The notes under the pieces were generated by a model. The model had not been told where the DNA came from and did no database searches. It saw nothing but the letters and a program-made list of their open reading frames with translations. 64,000 bases of DNA from an uncultured Desulfovibrionaceae bacterium (GTDB taxonomy: Bacteria; Bacillota; Dethiobacteria; DTU022; UBA8154), in assembly GCA_964581355.1 (NCBI GenBank), contig CAZOOA010000001.1:46922-110921 (forward strand), in the 5' to 3' direction. A program made the translations under genes and the position numbers. Positions 4,583 to 46,335 of this stretch are shown here, in pieces. Numbering within the stretch: position 1 is the first letter of the stretch; every line of letters begins with the position of its first letter.

Positions 4583-4680
4583 TATGGTCAGGGGAGCGTA
4601 GGAAACGTGGAAAAGGAAGCAAGAGAACCGTCCCCATGCTGCCCCTTCCCTGCTTCCCCATACTTCCATGTTTCCGGGCT
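4583..4680 (+). repeat. degenerate copy or fragment of the dispersed hairpin-repeat family (arm-2-like segment ...AGAGAACCGTCCCCATGCTGCC...)
   Basis: Matches the conserved arm (GCGCCAGAACCGTCCCCCTGCTTCGC) of the copies at 20870, 25912, 36416, 36829 and 46178. A second related fragment in inverted orientation lies around 4800-4870. Confidence 0.4.
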
Positions 4681-4974: not shown

Positions 4975-5262
4975 CTTCGAGCCGGGGTGGGGTAGAGGTG
5001 CGGCTGGCAAAGAGTATGTTCGAGAAAAGACGGTCCTTGATGAAACGGACAGAAAGGTGCCGCCGCCGAAGTTTTTGGTCCAAGGCCGGAGGCCAGAAGC
5101 TGGTTTGCCAGTGAATAACTGGCAAACTGTCACCCGTTCGAAAGGCCCTTTTCCCGGGTGGAGCGCTATCTCGCTGTGGGCATTTTTGAGGTTGCTTCTT
5201 GCGGTTTAAAGCGGCTACGGGTTTATCGTTGGTCGCTTTTTTGTTTTAAAATTTCCCTGAGG
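4975..5262 (+). promoter_or_regulatory. lysine riboswitch (L-box) with expression platform upstream of lysA
   Basis: The conserved L-box blocks are present in order: AGAGGTGCG, AAAGAGTATG, GAGAAAAGA, GAAAGGTGCCGCCGCCGAAG and GAGCGCTATCTCGCTG. They are collinear with the B. subtilis lysC leader and lie immediately 5' of lysA. Confidence 0.8.
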
Positions 5263-5272
5263 GGGTGGATGT

Positions 5273-6577
5273 ATGATCATGTCCGGTTCGATGGAAATCA
5301 ATGCAAAAGGGAACCTGGAAATCGGGGGTTGCGATACGGTAGAACTGGCTAAACAGTTCGGGACGCCCCTGTTCGTGATGGATGAAGAACAGATCCGAAA
5401 TAACTGCAGGCAGTATGTGAATGCCTTGAAAAAGCACTACCCGAAGGGGATGGTATTGTTTGCCGGTAAGGCTTTCTTAACCCTGGCCATGACCCGCCTG
5501 GTACACGAGGAAGAAATGGGGTTGGACGTGGTTTCCGGGGGCGAACTTTTTACGGCAGTGAACGCCGGTTTTCCCGTGGAGCGGATTTATTACCACGGAA
5601 ACAACAAGTCGACCCGTGAGTTAGTCGACGCCATTAAGTCCGGGGTGGGCCGGATCGTTGTGGACAGTATCCCGGAACTGGAAGAAATTAAAGAACTGTC
5701 GGCCCAGTTTGCAGAGGGCAAGGTCTCGGTGCTCCTGCGCCTCAAGCCCGGTGTGGAAGCCCATACCCATGAATATATTTCTACAGGGCAGGAGGACTCC
5801 AAGTTCGGCTTTGGCCTAGCGGACGACAGTGCCATGGAGGCGGTGGAGTCCTGCCTGAAAGCTTCAGATTTGATTGACCTGAGAGGATTTCACTGTCATA
5901 TCGGCTCGATGATCTTCCAGCTGGAACCTTTTTCCGTTGCCACCCGGGTGATGGTGGAGTTTATGGACCGGGTCCGGGACAAAACCGGTTTTGTGGCCGA
6001 AGAACTGGATATGGGCGGTGGCTTGGGTATCCGCCACAAGCAGGAAGACGACCCTCCTTCCATTGAGAGGTTCGTGGAAAATATTGCCCTGACGTTGAAA
6101 AGCGCCTGCCAGAAACAGGATTTTCCCCTGCCCGAGTTGATGCTGGAGCCCGGGCGTTCCATTACGGGGGAAGCCGGAGCAACACTTTATACGGTAGGTG
6201 TGATTAAGGATATTCCGGGGATCCGGCGCTATGTTTCCGTTGACGGGGGCATGATGGACAATATCCGGCCGGCTCTTTACAGCGCGAAATATGAAGCAGC
6301 TATCTGCAACAAAATAGGCCAGGAGTCCGGGGAGCTGGTTACGCTGGCCGGGAAAGCCTGCGAGTCCGGGGATATTTTGATCCGGGATATTTATCTGCCG
6401 CCCCTGGAAAGCGGTGATATTGTTGCTGTATTCAGCACAGGCGCCTACTGTTATTCCATGTCCAGCAATTACAACCGGAATCCCCGCCCGGCTGTCGTTT
6501 TTGTCCGTAACGGTGAGCCGAGGATTGTTGTGCGCAGGGAATCGTACGAGGATTTGATTGCGCTGGATGTATTGTAG
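5273..6577 (+). CDS. lysA: diaminopimelate decarboxylase
   Basis: The 434-aa ORF is a PLP-dependent group IV decarboxylase and sits downstream of the L-box. Confidence 0.9.
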   Translation: MIMSGSMEINAKGNLEIGGCDTVELAKQFGTPLFVMDEEQIRNNCRQYVNALKKHYPKGMVLFAGKAFLTLAMTRLVHEEEMGLDVVSGGELFTAVNAGFPVERIYYHGNNKSTRELVDAIKSGVGRIVVDSIPELEEIKELSAQFAEGKVSVLLRLKPGVEAHTHEYISTGQEDSKFGFGLADDSAMEAVESCLKASDLIDLRGFHCHIGSMIFQLEPFSVATRVMVEFMDRVRDKTGFVAEELDMGGGLGIRHKQEDDPPSIERFVENIALTLKSACQKQDFPLPELMLEPGRSITGEAGATLYTVGVIKDIPGIRRYVSVDGGMMDNIRPALYSAKYEAAICNKIGQESGELVTLAGKACESGDILIRDIYLPPLESGDIVAVFSTGAYCYSMSSNYNRNPRPAVVFVRNGEPRIVVRRESYEDLIALDVL

Positions 6578-6630
6578 CGGCCTCTTGGGTTGTGGAGGTT
6601 GGTATTTTTTGACGGAAGGGCGGTAAAAAG

Positions 6631-7479
6631 ATGATATTTACCAAGATGCACGGCCTGGGCAACGATTTTATTGTTGTAGATAACCTGGAAGGGCAGCACA
6701 GTCCGGAAGAGATGGCGAAAAAAGCTCCATCACTCTGCCACAGGCATTTTGGTATCGGTGCAGACGGCCTGGTCCTGCTGAACACTTCACGGGAAGCTCC
6801 TTTTGCCATGCAGATCTTTAACCCCGACGGTAGTGAGGCGGAGATGTGCGGTAATGCCATCCGCTGCCTGGGCAAGTATGTCTGGGACCGGAAGATGATT
6901 AACGGGGACAGGGTTTCCATCCAGACCGGTGCCGGGATTATGGAGTTGGCATTGAATATCCAGGGTTCGGAGGTAAAAGGGATCCGGGTGAACATGGGAC
7001 AGCCGATCCTGGACAGCCAGCAGATTCCCGTAGCAGGTCCTGAGCGAAAAGTGATCGATGAGCCCATTACCGCCGGGGACAAGACCTTTAAGTGCACCGC
7101 AGTAAGTATGGGCAACCCCCACTGCATCATTTTTGTGGACTCCCTGGAAGATATCCCCTGGAAAACATGGGGCCCTTTGCTGGAGAACCATAGCATGTTT
7201 CCCCGGCGGACCAACGTGGAATTTGTAGAAATCCTTGGGCCAGGCGAAGTCCGGGTCAATGTTTGGGAGAGAGGGGCAGGCCCAACTTTGGCCTGCGGTA
7301 CCGGGGCCTGCGCTACAACTGTGGCGGGTGTTATTACAGGGCGCCTGGAAGAAAATGTTGTAGTCCACCTTCCCGGGGGCACCCTGACTATTCAATGGAA
7401 GCAAGGGCAGCCTGTTTATATGGAGGGTCCTGCTGAGGAAGTATACCGGGGGGAAGTCTCTTTGGAGCGCATACAGTAA
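6631..7479 (+). CDS. dapF: diaminopimelate epimerase
   Basis: The 282-aa ORF has the N-terminal MIFTKMHGLGNDF motif and catalytic Cys motifs (CGNA, CGTGACA). Confidence 0.9.
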   Translation: MIFTKMHGLGNDFIVVDNLEGQHSPEEMAKKAPSLCHRHFGIGADGLVLLNTSREAPFAMQIFNPDGSEAEMCGNAIRCLGKYVWDRKMINGDRVSIQTGAGIMELALNIQGSEVKGIRVNMGQPILDSQQIPVAGPERKVIDEPITAGDKTFKCTAVSMGNPHCIIFVDSLEDIPWKTWGPLLENHSMFPRRTNVEFVEILGPGEVRVNVWERGAGPTLACGTGACATTVAGVITGRLEENVVVHLPGGTLTIQWKQGQPVYMEGPAEEVYRGEVSLERIQ

Positions 7480-20856: not shown

Positions 20857-20869
20857 TATTTTATCATTT

Positions 20870-21015
20870 GTAATTGCTCAGCACTATTTTAAGCGAAGCT
20901 TTGGGGACTGTTTTGGTACTCCCGGAGTGAAGAGGAGGACCGACAGGAAAAGCTCCAGGACCATCCACCTGCTTCGCGGCAAGTCACACAATCAGATCAA
21001 GGCTGAGCCAGATGC
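20870..21015 (+). mobile_element. MITE-like hairpin element copy B (146 bp) inserted between hisA and hisF; flanked by a perfect 8-bp direct repeat TATCATTT
   Basis: The termini GTAATTGCTCAGC...GGCTGAGCCAGATGC form imperfect TIRs. The internal arms ...GGGGACTGTTTTGG... and ...GGACCATCCACCTGCTTCGCGG flank the conserved core GGAGGACCGACAGGAAAAGC. TATCATTT occurs at 20862-20869 and again at 21016-21023. Confidence 0.65.
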
Positions 21016-21091
21016 TATCATTTTCAACTATACTTGCTGGTTTACCGCAAGGCTTTTCAAGATCATATTTGTTTACTGGAGGGAGGATCTG

Positions 21092-25837: not shown

Positions 25838-25911
25838 GTATTCCCGGAAGATTGTATATTTTTCCTTTGCACCGGGCAAAAAAAAGGATAAAATAAATGT
25901 AAGGTTTTATC

Positions 25912-26020
25912 CAACTGCTCAGGGCTTTTGTAAGCGAGGTTGTGGAACAGTTCGGTCGCTCCCAAGGAAGCAGGGAAGCATGAGAACCGTCCCCTTGCTT
26001 CCTGTGTGCAGTTGTGTTAC
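25912..26020 (+). repeat. hairpin-repeat family copy C (short variant, about 109 bp) between aroB and the HD-domain gene
   Basis: Runs CAACTGCTCAGGGCTTTTGTAAGCGAGG...GAGAACCGTCCCCTTGCTTCC...GCAGTTGTGTTAC. It aligns with copies B, E and F but has a shorter loop. The flanking TTTT-rich direct repeats are only weak. Confidence 0.55.
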
Positions 26021-26035
26021 TTTTTGACAAAGCAG

Positions 26036-34972: not shown

Positions 34973-36364
34973 CTATTCCTGAAAATAGCCCAGGATGGCA
35001 TCTTTTAAAGCGTTGGCTGCCAGTTCGTGGGTCTTTTCTGTTTTAAGTATTTTGGCATCGACTGCATTGGAGAGAAAAGCCAACTCAACCAGTGCAGAAG
35101 GAGTGGTAGACTCTTTTAAGATAGTAAACTCTGCCTCTTTAACACCCAGGCAGGGGAGTTGGAATGATCGGGTTAACTCCTTTTGCAGGCTGGAGGCAAG
35201 CTCGTAGCTTTTTTCACTGTTGGTGTCCCCCGGGTGATAAAAGGTTTCGGTGCCGGAGACAAAATGGTTGGGGTGGGCATTGGCATGGATGCTGACCAAA
35301 ATATCTGCCCCGGCTTCAGACTCGATCTCCAGCCGTTGGTCCATGGATAAGTCTTTGTCCCTATCTCGGGTCAGGACCACCCGGGCGCCTTTTTCCTTTA
35401 GCTTTTCTTCCAGCAGCAGGGACACGGACAGGCACACTTCTTTTTCTTTTAGCCCGTTGATCCCGGTAGCGCCGCCGTCCCTTCCGCCATGTCCCGGGTC
35501 CAGGACAATGGTTTTACCCTGAAGATCCCGGTTTTTGTCCGGGTTTGAGCTTTGATGATCCTCCCGGAAGGAGAGGATTTCTTTTTGTTCCGTGTAATCG
35601 CTGCTGACCCAACCTTCTGCCCCTCCCGGAAGGAGTACATTGTGCCAACCCTTTTCCCGATCCAGGATTAACAGGTGGTTGCCCTGGAAGGCCTGTTCTG
35701 TTTGCTCCCGGTCCAGCCCCGGGCCGGAGCGTACCCGGAGTATTTCTGGCACTACTTTGGCCAGTTGAAAATAGGTTTCCGGTTCGGTTTTTTCTTTTTC
35801 CTGCGGTTTGTCTTTTATAACCCGGATGTATTGTTCAGAGATCCAGCCGCTTTCTTCCCCAGCCTTTACTTTCAACCAGCCTTCTTTTTCTTCTTTAACT
35901 GTTGCTTCTTTTTTTTGCGGCAATGTCCCGATCTGGTCGTAATCTGTCCCCGGTCCTGTCCTCATATTTAACAGGTTGATTTCAACTTCAGCTTCAACTT
36001 CCAAAAGGTCTGGCAGCTTGTCCTTCAGTTCCGTATTATAACTGGTGTAGGAAGCATCGACCCACCCGGAGTGCCCGCCTTCCAGTGCAACCAGGATCCA
36101 ATCCTGGTCATAAGAGTAAACTTCCAAAGACTGTCCTGATGAAACCTGCTTGATTTGCTCATAAGAAGTTGAAGGTCCGGTTCTGACGTTTAACAGGGAA
36201 GCTTCAACCTGGACGGCAGGCTGATCGAAAGTGGCTTCAGCCGACAGCGGGGCCGGGCAGAAAAGTAGCAGCAAAAATGATGTCATCAACAGGCCAATAA
36301 TGAAAGAGGTGCCGCCGGACCTGTTGAATTTCGCCTCTTTTGTATTCCTGGCATACTTGAACAT
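34973..36364 (-). CDS. N-acetylmuramoyl-L-alanine amidase (Amidase_3) with signal peptide and three SH3b domains (YrvJ-like)
   Basis: The C-terminus has the Amidase_3 motifs (DPGHGGRDGGA...HANA) and the N-terminal region has three SH3b repeats. The start at 36364 is preceded by an AGGAGG RBS. The ORF-track extension to 36496 is unlikely to be translated. Confidence 0.8.
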   Translation of the reverse strand: MFKYARNTKEAKFNRSGGTSFIIGLLMTSFLLLLFCPAPLSAEATFDQPAVQVEASLLNVRTGPSTSYEQIKQVSSGQSLEVYSYDQDWILVALEGGHSGWVDASYTSYNTELKDKLPDLLEVEAEVEINLLNMRTGPGTDYDQIGTLPQKKEATVKEEKEGWLKVKAGEESGWISEQYIRVIKDKPQEKEKTEPETYFQLAKVVPEILRVRSGPGLDREQTEQAFQGNHLLILDREKGWHNVLLPGGAEGWVSSDYTEQKEILSFREDHQSSNPDKNRDLQGKTIVLDPGHGGRDGGATGINGLKEKEVCLSVSLLLEEKLKEKGARVVLTRDRDKDLSMDQRLEIESEAGADILVSIHANAHPNHFVSGTETFYHPGDTNSEKSYELASSLQKELTRSFQLPCLGVKEAEFTILKESTTPSALVELAFLSNAVDAKILKTEKTHELAANALKDAILGYFQE

Positions 36365-36415
36365 AATCGCTAGCCTCCTGTTTGGATGAAAAGAAACGGG
36401 GATGAAAAGAATTTT

Positions 36416-36606
36416 TAGCTGATCAGCGCTATTTACAAGCGAACCTGTTGGGACCGTTCCGGCGCCTCTGGGACGCAGCACAGGCTTCAGGGACATTTCT
36501 CTGGTATTTAGCGGTGTTCCTTCATTTTTTGAATAACGGGAAAGCGCCAGTATTGCCCCACTGCTTCGCTGCGTGTCGCGTAATCACACCAGGGCGGAGC
36601 AGTAAC
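36416..36606 (+). repeat. hairpin-repeat family copy D (long-loop variant, about 191 bp) in the amidase/hisS divergent intergenic region
   Basis: Runs TAGCTGATCAGCGCTATTTACAAGCGAACC-TGTTGGGACCGTTCCGGCGCC...GGGAAAGCGCCAGTATTGCCCCACTGCTTCGCTGCG...GGGCGGAGCAGTAAC. It has the same orientation as copy E, which lies 222 bp downstream. Confidence 0.55.
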
Positions 36607-36759
36607 AAGGTTTTTATGCTTGACCTCAAAAAGTTGTCTCTTGGAAACCTGGAGGCGGCCTGCATGAATTTTAGCATATTTTAACTAATTTGCAAAGGCG
36701 ACAATTTGCCAGAAATATAGCTGCTGCGGACAAAAACCTATTCAGGAAAGATTCATAAG

Positions 36760-36789
36760 TTGACAAGGCCTGGTTAATTAGCTTAAAAT
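36760..36789 (+). promoter_or_regulatory. sigma-A promoter (TTGACA-17 bp-TTAAAAT) for hisS-aspS
   Basis: TTGACA at 36760-36765 and TAAAAT at 36784-36789. The transcript would carry repeat copy E in its 5' UTR. Confidence 0.5.
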
Positions 36790-36828
36790 CAACTTGTATC
36801 TGAACAAAAACGAAACGAATCACGGAGG

Positions 36829-36970
36829 TAATTGCTCAGAGCTATTTGCAAGTGAAGCCGTGGGGACGGTTCTGGCGCTTCCGGAGCGTAGCGGAGGACC
36901 GACAGGGAAAGCGACAGAACTGTCCCCCTGCTTCGCGGTGTGTGGTGTAGTAAGTGGGCTGAGCAGTTAC
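36829..36970 (+). mobile_element. MITE-like hairpin element copy E (142 bp) inserted at the hisS ribosome-binding site; flanked by 9-bp direct repeats TCACGGAGG / TCATGGAGG
   Basis: The TIR is TAATTGCTCAG...CTGAGCAGTTAC. The internal 25-bp imperfect stem is GAAGCCGTGGGGACGGTTCTGGCGC / GCGACAGAACTGTCCCCCTGCTTC, around the core GGAGGACCGACAGGGAAAGC. The downstream direct repeat supplies the GGAGG RBS 7 nt before the hisS ATG. Confidence 0.65.
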
Positions 36971-36986
36971 TCATGGAGGCTATCCG

Positions 36987-38267
36987 ATGAAGAATAAAGC
37001 ACCGCGCGGGACAAGAGATGTGCTGCCGGCAGACATGCCTGCCTGGCATTACCTGGAGAACGTGTTTCAAAAGCTTTGCCATGTTTACGGTTATTCCGAG
37101 ATTCGCACACCTATTTTTGAAGACGTGGAAGTTTTTACGCGAAGTGTGGGTGAGGAGAGCGATGTGGTGGCAAAAGAGATGTATACCTTCACCGATCGGG
37201 GCGGGAGGCATTTGGCTTTAAGGCCTGAGTGTACAGCCGGAGTGGCCAGGGCCTTTATCGAACATGGTTTTCATAATCAACCCCAGCCGGTAAAGCTCTA
37301 TTACCTGGGACCTATGTTCCGCTATGACCGTCCCCAGGCCGGTAGACAGCGGCAGTTTTACCAGATGGGAATCGAACTTTTTGGGTCAACGGCTCCTGCA
37401 GCCGATGTAGAGGTGATCAAGTTTACTTATGATTTTTTTCGACAGGTCGGGTTTGATCGGTTGGAGTTACATATTAACAGTGTTGGGTGTAGAAGCTGTC
37501 GGCCGACGTACCAGGAGCAGTTAAAAACTGCTATCCAGCCTTTCGCCTCCAAACTGTGTGCCGATTGTCGAAAACGCCTTGAAACCAACCCTCTCCGCTT
37601 GCTGGACTGCAAATCACCCGGCTGCCAGGAAGCATCAACCGATGCTCCCAAGATAGACCAAAGCTTATGCCAGCCCTGCCAGTCTCACTACCAGGAAGTA
37701 AAAAGCAAGCTGGACTTACTGGGCATTGATTACAAACCCGACCCATACCTGGTCAGGGGACTGGATTATTATACCCATACGGCATTTGAATTTGTTTCGA
37801 CCAAGCTGGGGACCCAGAGCTCCCTGGGAGGAGGAGGCCGTTACGATAATTTGGTGGAAGTCTGCGGCGGAAACCCGACCCCGGGCGTAGGGATGGCTGT
37901 CGGTGTGGAGCGCATTTTGCTGGCCATGGGGAAGGAAGGGATCTCCCTGCCGGCAACTGGCCTGGAAGGCGTTTATGTCGCTGCGGGAACTTCTGCCCTG
38001 CAGGAAGAAGGGACAAAGCTTTTATACCGCCTTCGCGGTGCTGGGATCAGGGCGGAAACCGATTATATGGGGCGCAGCCTTAAGTCTATGATGAAAAATG
38101 CCCATCGCGGCAGGTTCCGTTATGTGGTCATCCTGGATCAGGAAACAGAAGACCAGGGGACCTGGAAAATCAGGGATATGGGCAGCGGAGAGCAGCAGAA
38201 GTATCCTCCTGGCGCGGCGGAGCAACTATTGCTGGATGAACGGGAACAGGATGGTGCTTTAAATTAA
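36987..38267 (+). CDS. hisS: histidine--tRNA ligase
   Basis: The 426-aa ORF has class II aaRS motifs and the N-terminus MKNKAPRGTRDVLP. Confidence 0.9.
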   Translation: MKNKAPRGTRDVLPADMPAWHYLENVFQKLCHVYGYSEIRTPIFEDVEVFTRSVGEESDVVAKEMYTFTDRGGRHLALRPECTAGVARAFIEHGFHNQPQPVKLYYLGPMFRYDRPQAGRQRQFYQMGIELFGSTAPAADVEVIKFTYDFFRQVGFDRLELHINSVGCRSCRPTYQEQLKTAIQPFASKLCADCRKRLETNPLRLLDCKSPGCQEASTDAPKIDQSLCQPCQSHYQEVKSKLDLLGIDYKPDPYLVRGLDYYTHTAFEFVSTKLGTQSSLGGGGRYDNLVEVCGGNPTPGVGMAVGVERILLAMGKEGISLPATGLEGVYVAAGTSALQEEGTKLLYRLRGAGIRAETDYMGRSLKSMMKNAHRGRFRYVVILDQETEDQGTWKIRDMGSGEQQKYPPGAAEQLLLDEREQDGALN

Positions 38268-40185: not shown

Positions 40186-40515
40186 AAAATTGCGAAAAAT
40201 GCAAGGGATATTCCCTACTGTGTGCGTGTAAAATCGCGAATGTTTTGAGCTAACACTAACGAAATGGGAGCCTGGACTTTACATGCGGCGCAGAAGCCTT
40301 GGTCGGAACGAGGACCTGCAAAGCATGTAAGAGGGCACCCACCTTGAGAGAGGGCGTTCAAAACAAGCGGTCCACGGCACAGTGGGGTTATTTTATTTGT
40401 GCCTGTTTTTACGATCAAGCCAGCAGAAAGCCCACGGCTTTAGCCGAGGGATGAATACTTAATAGACAGTTGACTTGATGGTTGAGTCGGGTATTTTGTT
40501 GCCGGGGGTGAGGAA

Positions 40516-46094: not shown

Positions 46095-46177
46095 ACTTCT
46101 TTGGTTAAACCGGTATTTGTATCCTGCTTGGTGTAAATACTAGTAGCCTGTGAAGGAGAAAAAAGATACAATGAATG

Positions 46178-46335
46178 TAATTGCTCAGGAGATGTATTGT
46201 TCAGATCTATTTATAAGCTAGGCTGTGAGGACTGTTCGTGCGTTTCCTGAGTAAAGCGAAGGACCAAATGGGAAAGCGCCAGAACCGTCCCCCTGCTTCG
46301 CAAGGTATGAAGCAAAGTTGGGCTGAAAGCTATTG
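46178..46335 (+). mobile_element. MITE-like hairpin element copy F (about 158 bp) between the class B PBP gene and murE in the dcw cluster
   Basis: Runs TAATTGCTCAGG...(internal partial duplication TTGTTCAGATCTATTTATAAGC)...GGGAAAGCGCCAGAACCGTCCCCCTGCTTCGC...GGGCTGAAAGCTATTG. It is flanked by ATGAAT / ATGAAC direct repeats (imperfect). Confidence 0.55.

Follow-up and report, generated by a model that had tools for sequence, protein, structure and literature searches.

A miniature transposable element in the hisS leader of an uncultured bacterium, most likely of ISBst12-group origin, with a target-site duplication that spans the Shine-Dalgarno sequence

The window analyzed here is a 64,000-nucleotide (64-kb) stretch of contig CAZOOA010000001.1 (assembly GCA_964581355.1) from an uncultured bacterium. 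It carries hisS, the gene for histidine–tRNA ligase, preceded by a conserved promoter. Between this promoter and the start codon lies a palindromic, non-coding repeat that we designate copy E and assign to the MITEs (miniature inverted-repeat transposable elements). The features of the locus, in window coordinates, are the following; REP denotes a repetitive extragenic palindrome.

36760..36789, plus strand: hisS promoter, with -35 TTGACA at 36760-36765, an 18-nt spacer and -10 TAAAAT at 36784-36789 (11 of 12 consensus matches)
36820..36827, plus strand: upstream copy of the target-site duplication, TCACGGAG, ancestral C kept; forms with G36828 an orphan GGAGG that has no usable start codon behind it
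36828..36970, plus strand: copy E, a non-autonomous MITE of 143 bp forming a long imperfect hairpin (nhmmer 8e-45), absent from relatives
36828..36839, plus strand: left terminal inverted repeat, GTAATTGCTCAG, matching ISBst12-group ends
36854..36881, plus strand: left REP-like unit, GAAGCCGTGGGGACGGTTCTGGCGCTTC
36907..36934, plus strand: right REP-like unit, inverted, GAAAGCGACAGAACTGTCCCCCTGCTTC
36959..36970, plus strand: right terminal inverted repeat, CTGAGCAGTTAC (reverse complement GTAACTGCTCAG(CC))
36971..36978, plus strand: downstream copy of the target-site duplication, TCATGGAG, in which T replaces the C found in the upstream copy and in relatives
36975..36979, plus strand: functional Shine-Dalgarno (SD) sequence GGAGG, with GGAG from the duplication and the last G native; spacing to the ATG as in L011, a relative's contig
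36987..38267, plus strand: hisS (426 aa; Pfam tRNA-synt_His and HGTP_anticodon)

A single long hairpin is predicted for copy E (36820-36990: -78 kcal/mol; z = -4.75; 0 of 200 shuffles as stable). The first-pass annotation had recognized a stable hairpin directly 5' of the SD sequence; its size is 143 bp rather than the 142 nt then given. No transposase open reading frame (ORF) lies in copy E, which is crossed only by spurious ORFs. The flanks TCACGGAG and TCATGGAG are identical at 7 of 8 positions, and a ninth matching G is supplied by the first base of the element on the left and by the native G36979 on the right. When 143-nt segments are drawn from the window at random, their flanks match at 8/8 positions with a probability of 4e-5 and at 7/8 or better with one of 5.7e-4. 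The boundaries defined by other copies of the repeat (see below) place the start of the element at the G of GTAA..., and the duplication of copy E is therefore 8 bp. The first-pass annotation had described a 9-nt duplicated flank, with TCACGGAGG at 36820-36828, TCATGGAGG at 36971-36979, and the second GGAGG 7 nt before an ATG at 36987. Each of these positions is correct in the sequence and the duplication itself holds; its length is revised.

The state of the site before insertion can be read from relatives. We compared four of these, represented by seven contigs (L006-L012), with HisS proteins 65-74% identical to that of the window; 74% is the closest available. All four share the promoter and have a single GACGGAGG-type ribosome-binding site (RBS), no element, and a leader of about 40-60 nt. 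With the element and one duplicate removed, the window reads ...GAATCACGGAGGCTATCCGATGAAGAATAAA, collinear with ...TGTGACGGAGGCATCCCGATGAAGAATAAA of L011. The comparison with the upstream regions of relatives had been set beforehand as a refutation test of the duplication, and no duplicated TCAYGGAGG occurs in the element-free contigs. The empty single site thus identifies copy E as an insertion with target-site duplication, one that duplicated the native RBS as had been proposed. Relatives carry C at the variable position of the duplicate, which makes the upstream duplicate the ancestral one and indicates that the downstream, functional duplicate mutated from C to T. Several metagenome assemblies contain identical hisS regions. 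Two independent short-read contigs (L004 and L005, position 1) stop at the same base within the element loop, as expected of a repeat whose palindrome breaks assemblies.

The proposed TTGACA/TAAAAT promoter is also retained. By consensus scoring it is the sole strong promoter-like site on the hisS strand, and its motif, GTTGACAAG...GCTTAAAATC, is constant across L006-L012 while neighboring sequence diverges; we accept it as the hisS promoter because of this conservation. Transcription is predicted to start at about position 36796. Two other start codons were considered and rejected: a TTG after the orphan SD, from which it is spaced by only 3 nt, and an ATG created by the C-to-T change, which no SD precedes. 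The same change opens a five-codon mini-ORF, MEAIR (36973-36990), whose TGA stop overlaps the hisS ATG (ATGA); lacking an SD, this mini-ORF is probably meaningless.

BLAST and an nhmmer profile were used to search the 64-kb window for further copies. The window contains five copies, all on the plus strand and about 78-80% identical to E, together with one remnant. The other members are the following.

4591..4660, plus strand: half-copy remnant, loop and right arm only
20870..21015, plus strand: sister copy between hisA-like and hisF-like genes, with an exact (8/8) duplication TATCATTT at 20862-20869 and 21016-21023
25911..26022, plus strand: shorter, degenerate sister copy
36415..36606, plus strand: sister copy with a loop insertion of about 46 nt, located upstream of the hisS promoter in the intergenic region between divergent genes; flanks AAGAATTT and AAGGTTTT (6/8)
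46177..46333, plus strand: sister copy upstream of a murE-like gene, flanks 5/8; its left end is doubled (46177-46207: GTAATTGCTCAG GAGAT GTATTGTTCAG)

A full-length copy from another metagenome, in locus L082, is flanked by an 8/8 duplication, ATTTAATT. In this copy (6517-6662, minus strand) the central loop segment is inverted relative to E and the ends keep the orientation of E, which suggests flip-flop recombination between the arms. No further copy was found in the approximately 8 kb of contig beyond the window. In a genome collection that lacks the source genome, the left end GTAATTGCTCAGNNCTATTT gave 12 matches in unrelated taxa, roughly the number expected by chance, and none fits the element model. 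Rfam contains no family for the element; a weak match to mir-621 (27 bits; gathering score 71) was discarded as spurious. Similarity of the outer arms of E to the flanks of loci L036 and L100 was likewise rejected, as it reflects the orthology of those two loci and a 9-nt coincidence.

The termini of copy E, GTAATTGCTCAGAG and GTAACTGCTCAGCC, point to the source of its mobility. GTAA ends combined with an 8-bp duplication were presumed to indicate the IS66 family, and the ends were then compared with sequences. ISDge4, a member of the ISBst12 group of single-ORF IS66-family insertion sequences (ISs), has the ends GTGACTACTCAGCA and GTAACTGCTCAGCA and an 8-bp direct repeat (2026 paper, PMC12898284); the right end of copy E matches GTAACTGCTCAGCA at 13 of 14 positions. 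Further reference ends were derived from annotated single-ORF IS66-family elements on Firmicute plasmids. The pHTA426 element has ends GTATCTATTCAGCCC and GTAACTATTCAGCCC, the duplication GACGAGTT, and a transposase that matches DDE_Tnp_IS66 at 1.9e-64. ISGst1 from Geobacillus has the end GTAACTATTCAGCC(C) and the duplication AAAAGAAC, an element of Clostridium estertheticum has the end GTTACTGCTCAGCC (13/14 match to E) and the duplication CAAAATTT/A, and one of Bacillus thuringiensis has the end GTAACTACTCAGCTT.

Copy E therefore has in common with ISBst12, ISDge4, ISGst1, and the pHTA426 element a GTAA start, the GTAAYTRYTCAGCC consensus, and an 8-bp duplication, and the group is present in Firmicutes. 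It differs from these ISs, which are about 1.6 kb long, in having 143 bp and no transposase gene, and its interior is unrelated to theirs: the GGGGACGGTTCT core occurs in none of the compared IS66-family elements. Since copy E fits the end consensus of the ISBst12 group and encodes nothing, we assign it as a MITE of this group. Properties expected of a MITE derived from this group are found in E, namely GTAA-type ends, an 8-bp duplication, short length, no transposase ORF, dispersed copies, and an empty site in relatives. To judge from the termini, the transposase that moved copy E was most likely a single-ORF IS66-family DDE transposase of the ISBst12 group.

The interior has a different affinity. 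The inner arms of copy E are inverted pairs of the unit GAAGC-N3-GGGGACGGTTCT-N3-GCTTC, and the inner-arm motif AGAACYGTCCCCNTGCTTC occurs in at least 118 metagenome contigs from termite gut, bioreactors, fermenters, soil, and soda lakes. Most of the matches listed pair two inverted units, GAAGCAnGGGGACGGTTCTnnTGCTTC, in a near-perfect palindrome whose variable positions agree between the arms; among the matches listed, only L082 resembles E from end to end. Examples of GAAGCAnGGGGACGGTTCTnnTGCTTC...(inverted) in the metagenome loci L025-L142 are found at L057 5689-5750 and at L093 1310 and 2158. The 3' flanks of many of these palindromes (L055, L075, L106, L123, L126, and window positions 4624-4660) contain partial tandem re-iterations of the unit, such as ...CTGCTTCgaaccgtccccctgc. 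Clustering of all ORFs of those contigs yielded one specific recurrent protein, a Y1_Tnp (PF01797) present in four contigs. The repeat unit lies no more than 40 nt from the ends of the Y1_Tnp gene in L093, L141, L042, and L040, and in L093 inverted units stand on both sides. The L093 protein is a REP-associated tyrosine transposase (RAYT) according to the NCBIfam model REP_Tyr_transpos (82.6 bits, cut-off 80). As the repeat unit flanks RAYT genes, the core of E probably belongs to a REP/RAYT family, and the palindrome, whose invariant core spans 12 nt, seems to represent a REP/RAYT system that is widespread among uncultured Firmicutes. A literature search for the core motif returned unrelated primers only.

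REP doublets that form hairpins and are linked to RAYTs (REPINs) are best documented in Proteobacteria. Like them, E-type copies consist of two inverted palindromic units of about 27 nt, form a long hairpin, and are intergenic and multicopy (Bertels and Rainey, 2011, PMC3116915; PMC5581495). They differ in their additional DDE-type terminal repeats and 8-bp duplications, and in that no RAYT was seen in the sequence examined from the source organism. Group 1 RAYTs are known from Clostridia, with a weak association with repeats (PMC5581495). Since the compared IS66-family elements lack the core, E-type elements look composite, a REP doublet within ISBst12-type ends. One extension of this observation, which we regard as possible and rather unlikely, is that E-type elements are true hybrids in which a REPIN core, substrate of a RAYT and member of a family with a wide range of anaerobic habitats, gained ISBst12-type ends and so came to serve two classes of transposase, and that the orphan SD and the hairpin were co-opted to set hisS mRNA stability or translation in a T-box-free lineage.

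We consider it unlikely that copy E is instead a REPIN spread by a RAYT with no part played by a DDE transposase. In favor of such an origin, its inner arms carry inverted pairs of units, the same unit flanks Y1_Tnp genes in four other metagenomic organisms (one protein passing the REP_Tyr_transpos cut-off), and such palindromes occur in the many metagenome contigs cited above. Transposases of the HUH/Y1 type, from IS200/IS605 to RAYT, insert without target duplication, however, and the E-type copies have clear 8-bp duplications, which indicate that they moved by the DDE route. Moreover, the 12-14-nt GTAA... terminal repeats that match IS66-family ends lie outside the REP core, and the window contains no RAYT gene.

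The consequences of the insertion for the hisS mRNA were assessed next to its position in the transcription unit. Copy E ends 16 nt before the hisS ATG, and inspection of the element found no promoter-like or terminator-like site within it (best internal hexamers 3/6 and 3/6). From these two observations we infer that the element should be co-transcribed with hisS, and the earlier expectation that the hisS transcript carries the hairpin is retained as a prediction; the order in the transcript should be orphan SD, hairpin, and rebuilt SD. The predicted leader was folded by partition function with and without the element. G36978 and G36979 are mostly unpaired (predicted 0.96 and 0.92), and G36975-A36977 have unpaired probabilities of 0.11-0.19, being paired in a small native hairpin with the UCCG that immediately precedes the AUG. 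This hairpin is also predicted in the leader without the element, and the models show no change in the accessibility of SD and AUG. Opening the region from SD to AUG costs 5.5 kcal/mol with the element and 6.95 kcal/mol without it, whereas opening -20 to +13 costs 11.1 kcal/mol with it and 7.5 kcal/mol without it, about 3.6 kcal/mol more, since this wider opening requires the element helix to melt at its base. Both opening costs are reduced by about 1 kcal/mol through the C-to-T change. These models accordingly predict a small to modest effect of the element on hisS translation.

A stable hairpin directly 5' of the SD sequence of an aminoacyl-tRNA synthetase (aaRS) gene invites comparison with regulatory leaders, and copy E might be an evolved cis-regulatory leader RNA, a T-box substitute through which some signal would govern the translation of hisS or the decay of its mRNA. 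Another copy lies within the histidine biosynthesis operon, between the hisA-like and hisF-like genes, every copy is co-oriented with transcription, and the SD mini-hairpin becomes slightly looser with the C-to-T change of the downstream duplicate. Against these observations, copies also occur in unrelated contexts such as upstream of the murE-like gene, relatives express hisS from a leader of about 40 nt without the element, and terminal inverted repeats with target duplications are hallmarks of transposition. The five copies display no compensatory variation: only 2 of 27 pairs have any double change, with many broken and a covariation term of +2.24. In 36400-37100 the T-box covariance model of Rfam gave no match, either at the gathering threshold or at E <= 10. 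The lack of compensatory changes and of any Rfam match favors a tolerated selfish insertion over an evolved regulator; copy E is probably not the latter, and we judge the specific proposal of a T-box substitute very unlikely. That the flanks match by coincidence or local slippage, with the element ancestral to the hisS leader and lost by relatives, is scarcely credible, for even though GGAGG-rich sequence is common upstream of genes and HisS identity to the closest relative available reaches only 74%, it would entail precise loss in four relatives that each retain a clean single site, and it leaves aside the different 8-bp duplications of independent copies elsewhere and the low chance of the flank match.

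The explanation that we favor, and consider quite probable, is that copy E is a MITE, most likely mobilized by an ISBst12-group transposase, that inserted at the hisS SD sequence, that its duplication rebuilt this sequence, and that its effect is near-neutral or mildly dampening. The MITE would have struck the short leader (about 40 nt) at the SD, where a staggered 8-bp cut at TCACGGAG was presumably filled in on both sides. The upstream duplicate would then have been left as an orphan pseudo-SD, and the downstream duplicate would have come to adjoin the native G-CTATCCG-ATG, restoring a full GGAGG at the original 7-nt spacing. With the full GGAGG rebuilt at this spacing, the translation signals of hisS survived, and the gene probably still works. 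Read-through from the conserved promoter would yield a leader of about 190 nt, in which the base of the long hairpin stops 4 nt short of the SD. Any effect on expression may be exerted through the helix abutting the 30S footprint, through cleavage by a double-strand-specific RNase, or through the stability of the 5' end.

Several points weigh against this explanation. A tblastn search of the window and of the examined loci of the source organism identified no IS66-family transposase flanked by matching ends; neither a full-length pair of GTAAYTGCTCAG ends nor a RAYT was found in the same sequence, and the window contains no transposase. The inner arms resemble the REP units of a RAYT system, which has a different transposition chemistry, and the history of the element is apparently composite. 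All five window copies are oriented like nearly every gene in the window (p ~0.06, n = 5), a co-orientation that could hint at selection at the RNA level in what is a small sample. Finally, a weak internal promoter or RNase processing of the leader may alter the transcript.

Precedents exist for parts of this mechanism. Correia elements (CREE) of Neisseria are MITE hairpins that are co-transcribed with their neighbors, can be bound or cut by RNase III, and can alter expression (PMC2649163). Copy E is predicted to resemble them in its co-transcription with the neighboring gene; CREE have other ends and a TA duplication, and they can create promoters, none of which is predicted in E. At the pyrF RBS of Geobacillus kaustophilus, IS insertions at -14 to -7 give direct repeats of GAAGGAGA or AAGGAGA (PMC8024623). 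At pyrF the SD is likewise copied by the duplication, and expression of the gene persists; those insertions are full-length IS701-family elements obtained under laboratory selection for promoter activity, whereas copy E is a natural, fixed, promoter-less MITE. A 2024 review of MITEs mentions neither IS66-derived MITEs nor RBS restoration, and the searchable literature yielded no account of a MITE family whose ends are of ISBst12/IS66 type.

Two kinds of leader structure offer further comparisons. T-box leaders are used by many Firmicutes for aaRS genes, and copy E shares with them its location in an aaRS 5' leader. It is unlike them in the lack of a T-box match and of a terminator or antiterminator, and the leader in relatives is only about 40 nt long. 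STAB-SD sequences and 5' stem-loops stabilize mRNAs in Bacillus, as for cryIIIA, ermC, and aprE. Copy E has a purely formal resemblance to these, an SD-like GGAGG that lacks a start codon and precedes a strong stem close to the mRNA 5' end. Unlike a STAB-SD, the orphan SD is set about 28 nt from the predicted 5' end and is partly paired in the predictions.

A gene for an SH3-domain N-acetylmuramoyl-L-alanine amidase (34973-36364, minus strand) separates dtd from hisS. In the two relatives with contigs that reach that far (HisS P0003: L006-L009; P0005: L012), dtd is directly followed by hisS, and the amidase gene is therefore a lineage-specific insertion. Given a promoter-like site at 36696-36668 (minus strand), the 5' leader of the amidase mRNA would cross the copy at 36415-36606 in antisense. 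REP-like palindromes or their remnants also lie just upstream of the hisS promoter in relatives (L011 at about 950-1090, L010 at position 1, and L006 at about 2790-2810), a placement similar to that of the 36415-36606 copy, and this region may be an old or recurrent landing spot. Elsewhere in the window, a lysine riboswitch (4985-5176; 106.8 bits) lies about 330 nt downstream of the half-copy remnant, and a 6S RNA gene (40209-40392; 96.9 bits) is located downstream of aspS.

Copy E offers a natural example of an essential gene that outlives a transposon hit in its translation start region, with the duplication itself restoring the SD sequence. It further defines a family of MITEs that combine ISBst12/IS66-type ends with an interior probably drawn from a REP/RAYT repeat family, one that is apparently widespread in uncultured Firmicutes. 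If the leader hairpin alters hisS expression, the locus would be a simple model of how selfish hairpins become post-transcriptional regulators; if the hairpin is without effect, the site would be a useful neutral marker with which this uncultured soda-lake lineage could be dated and tracked.

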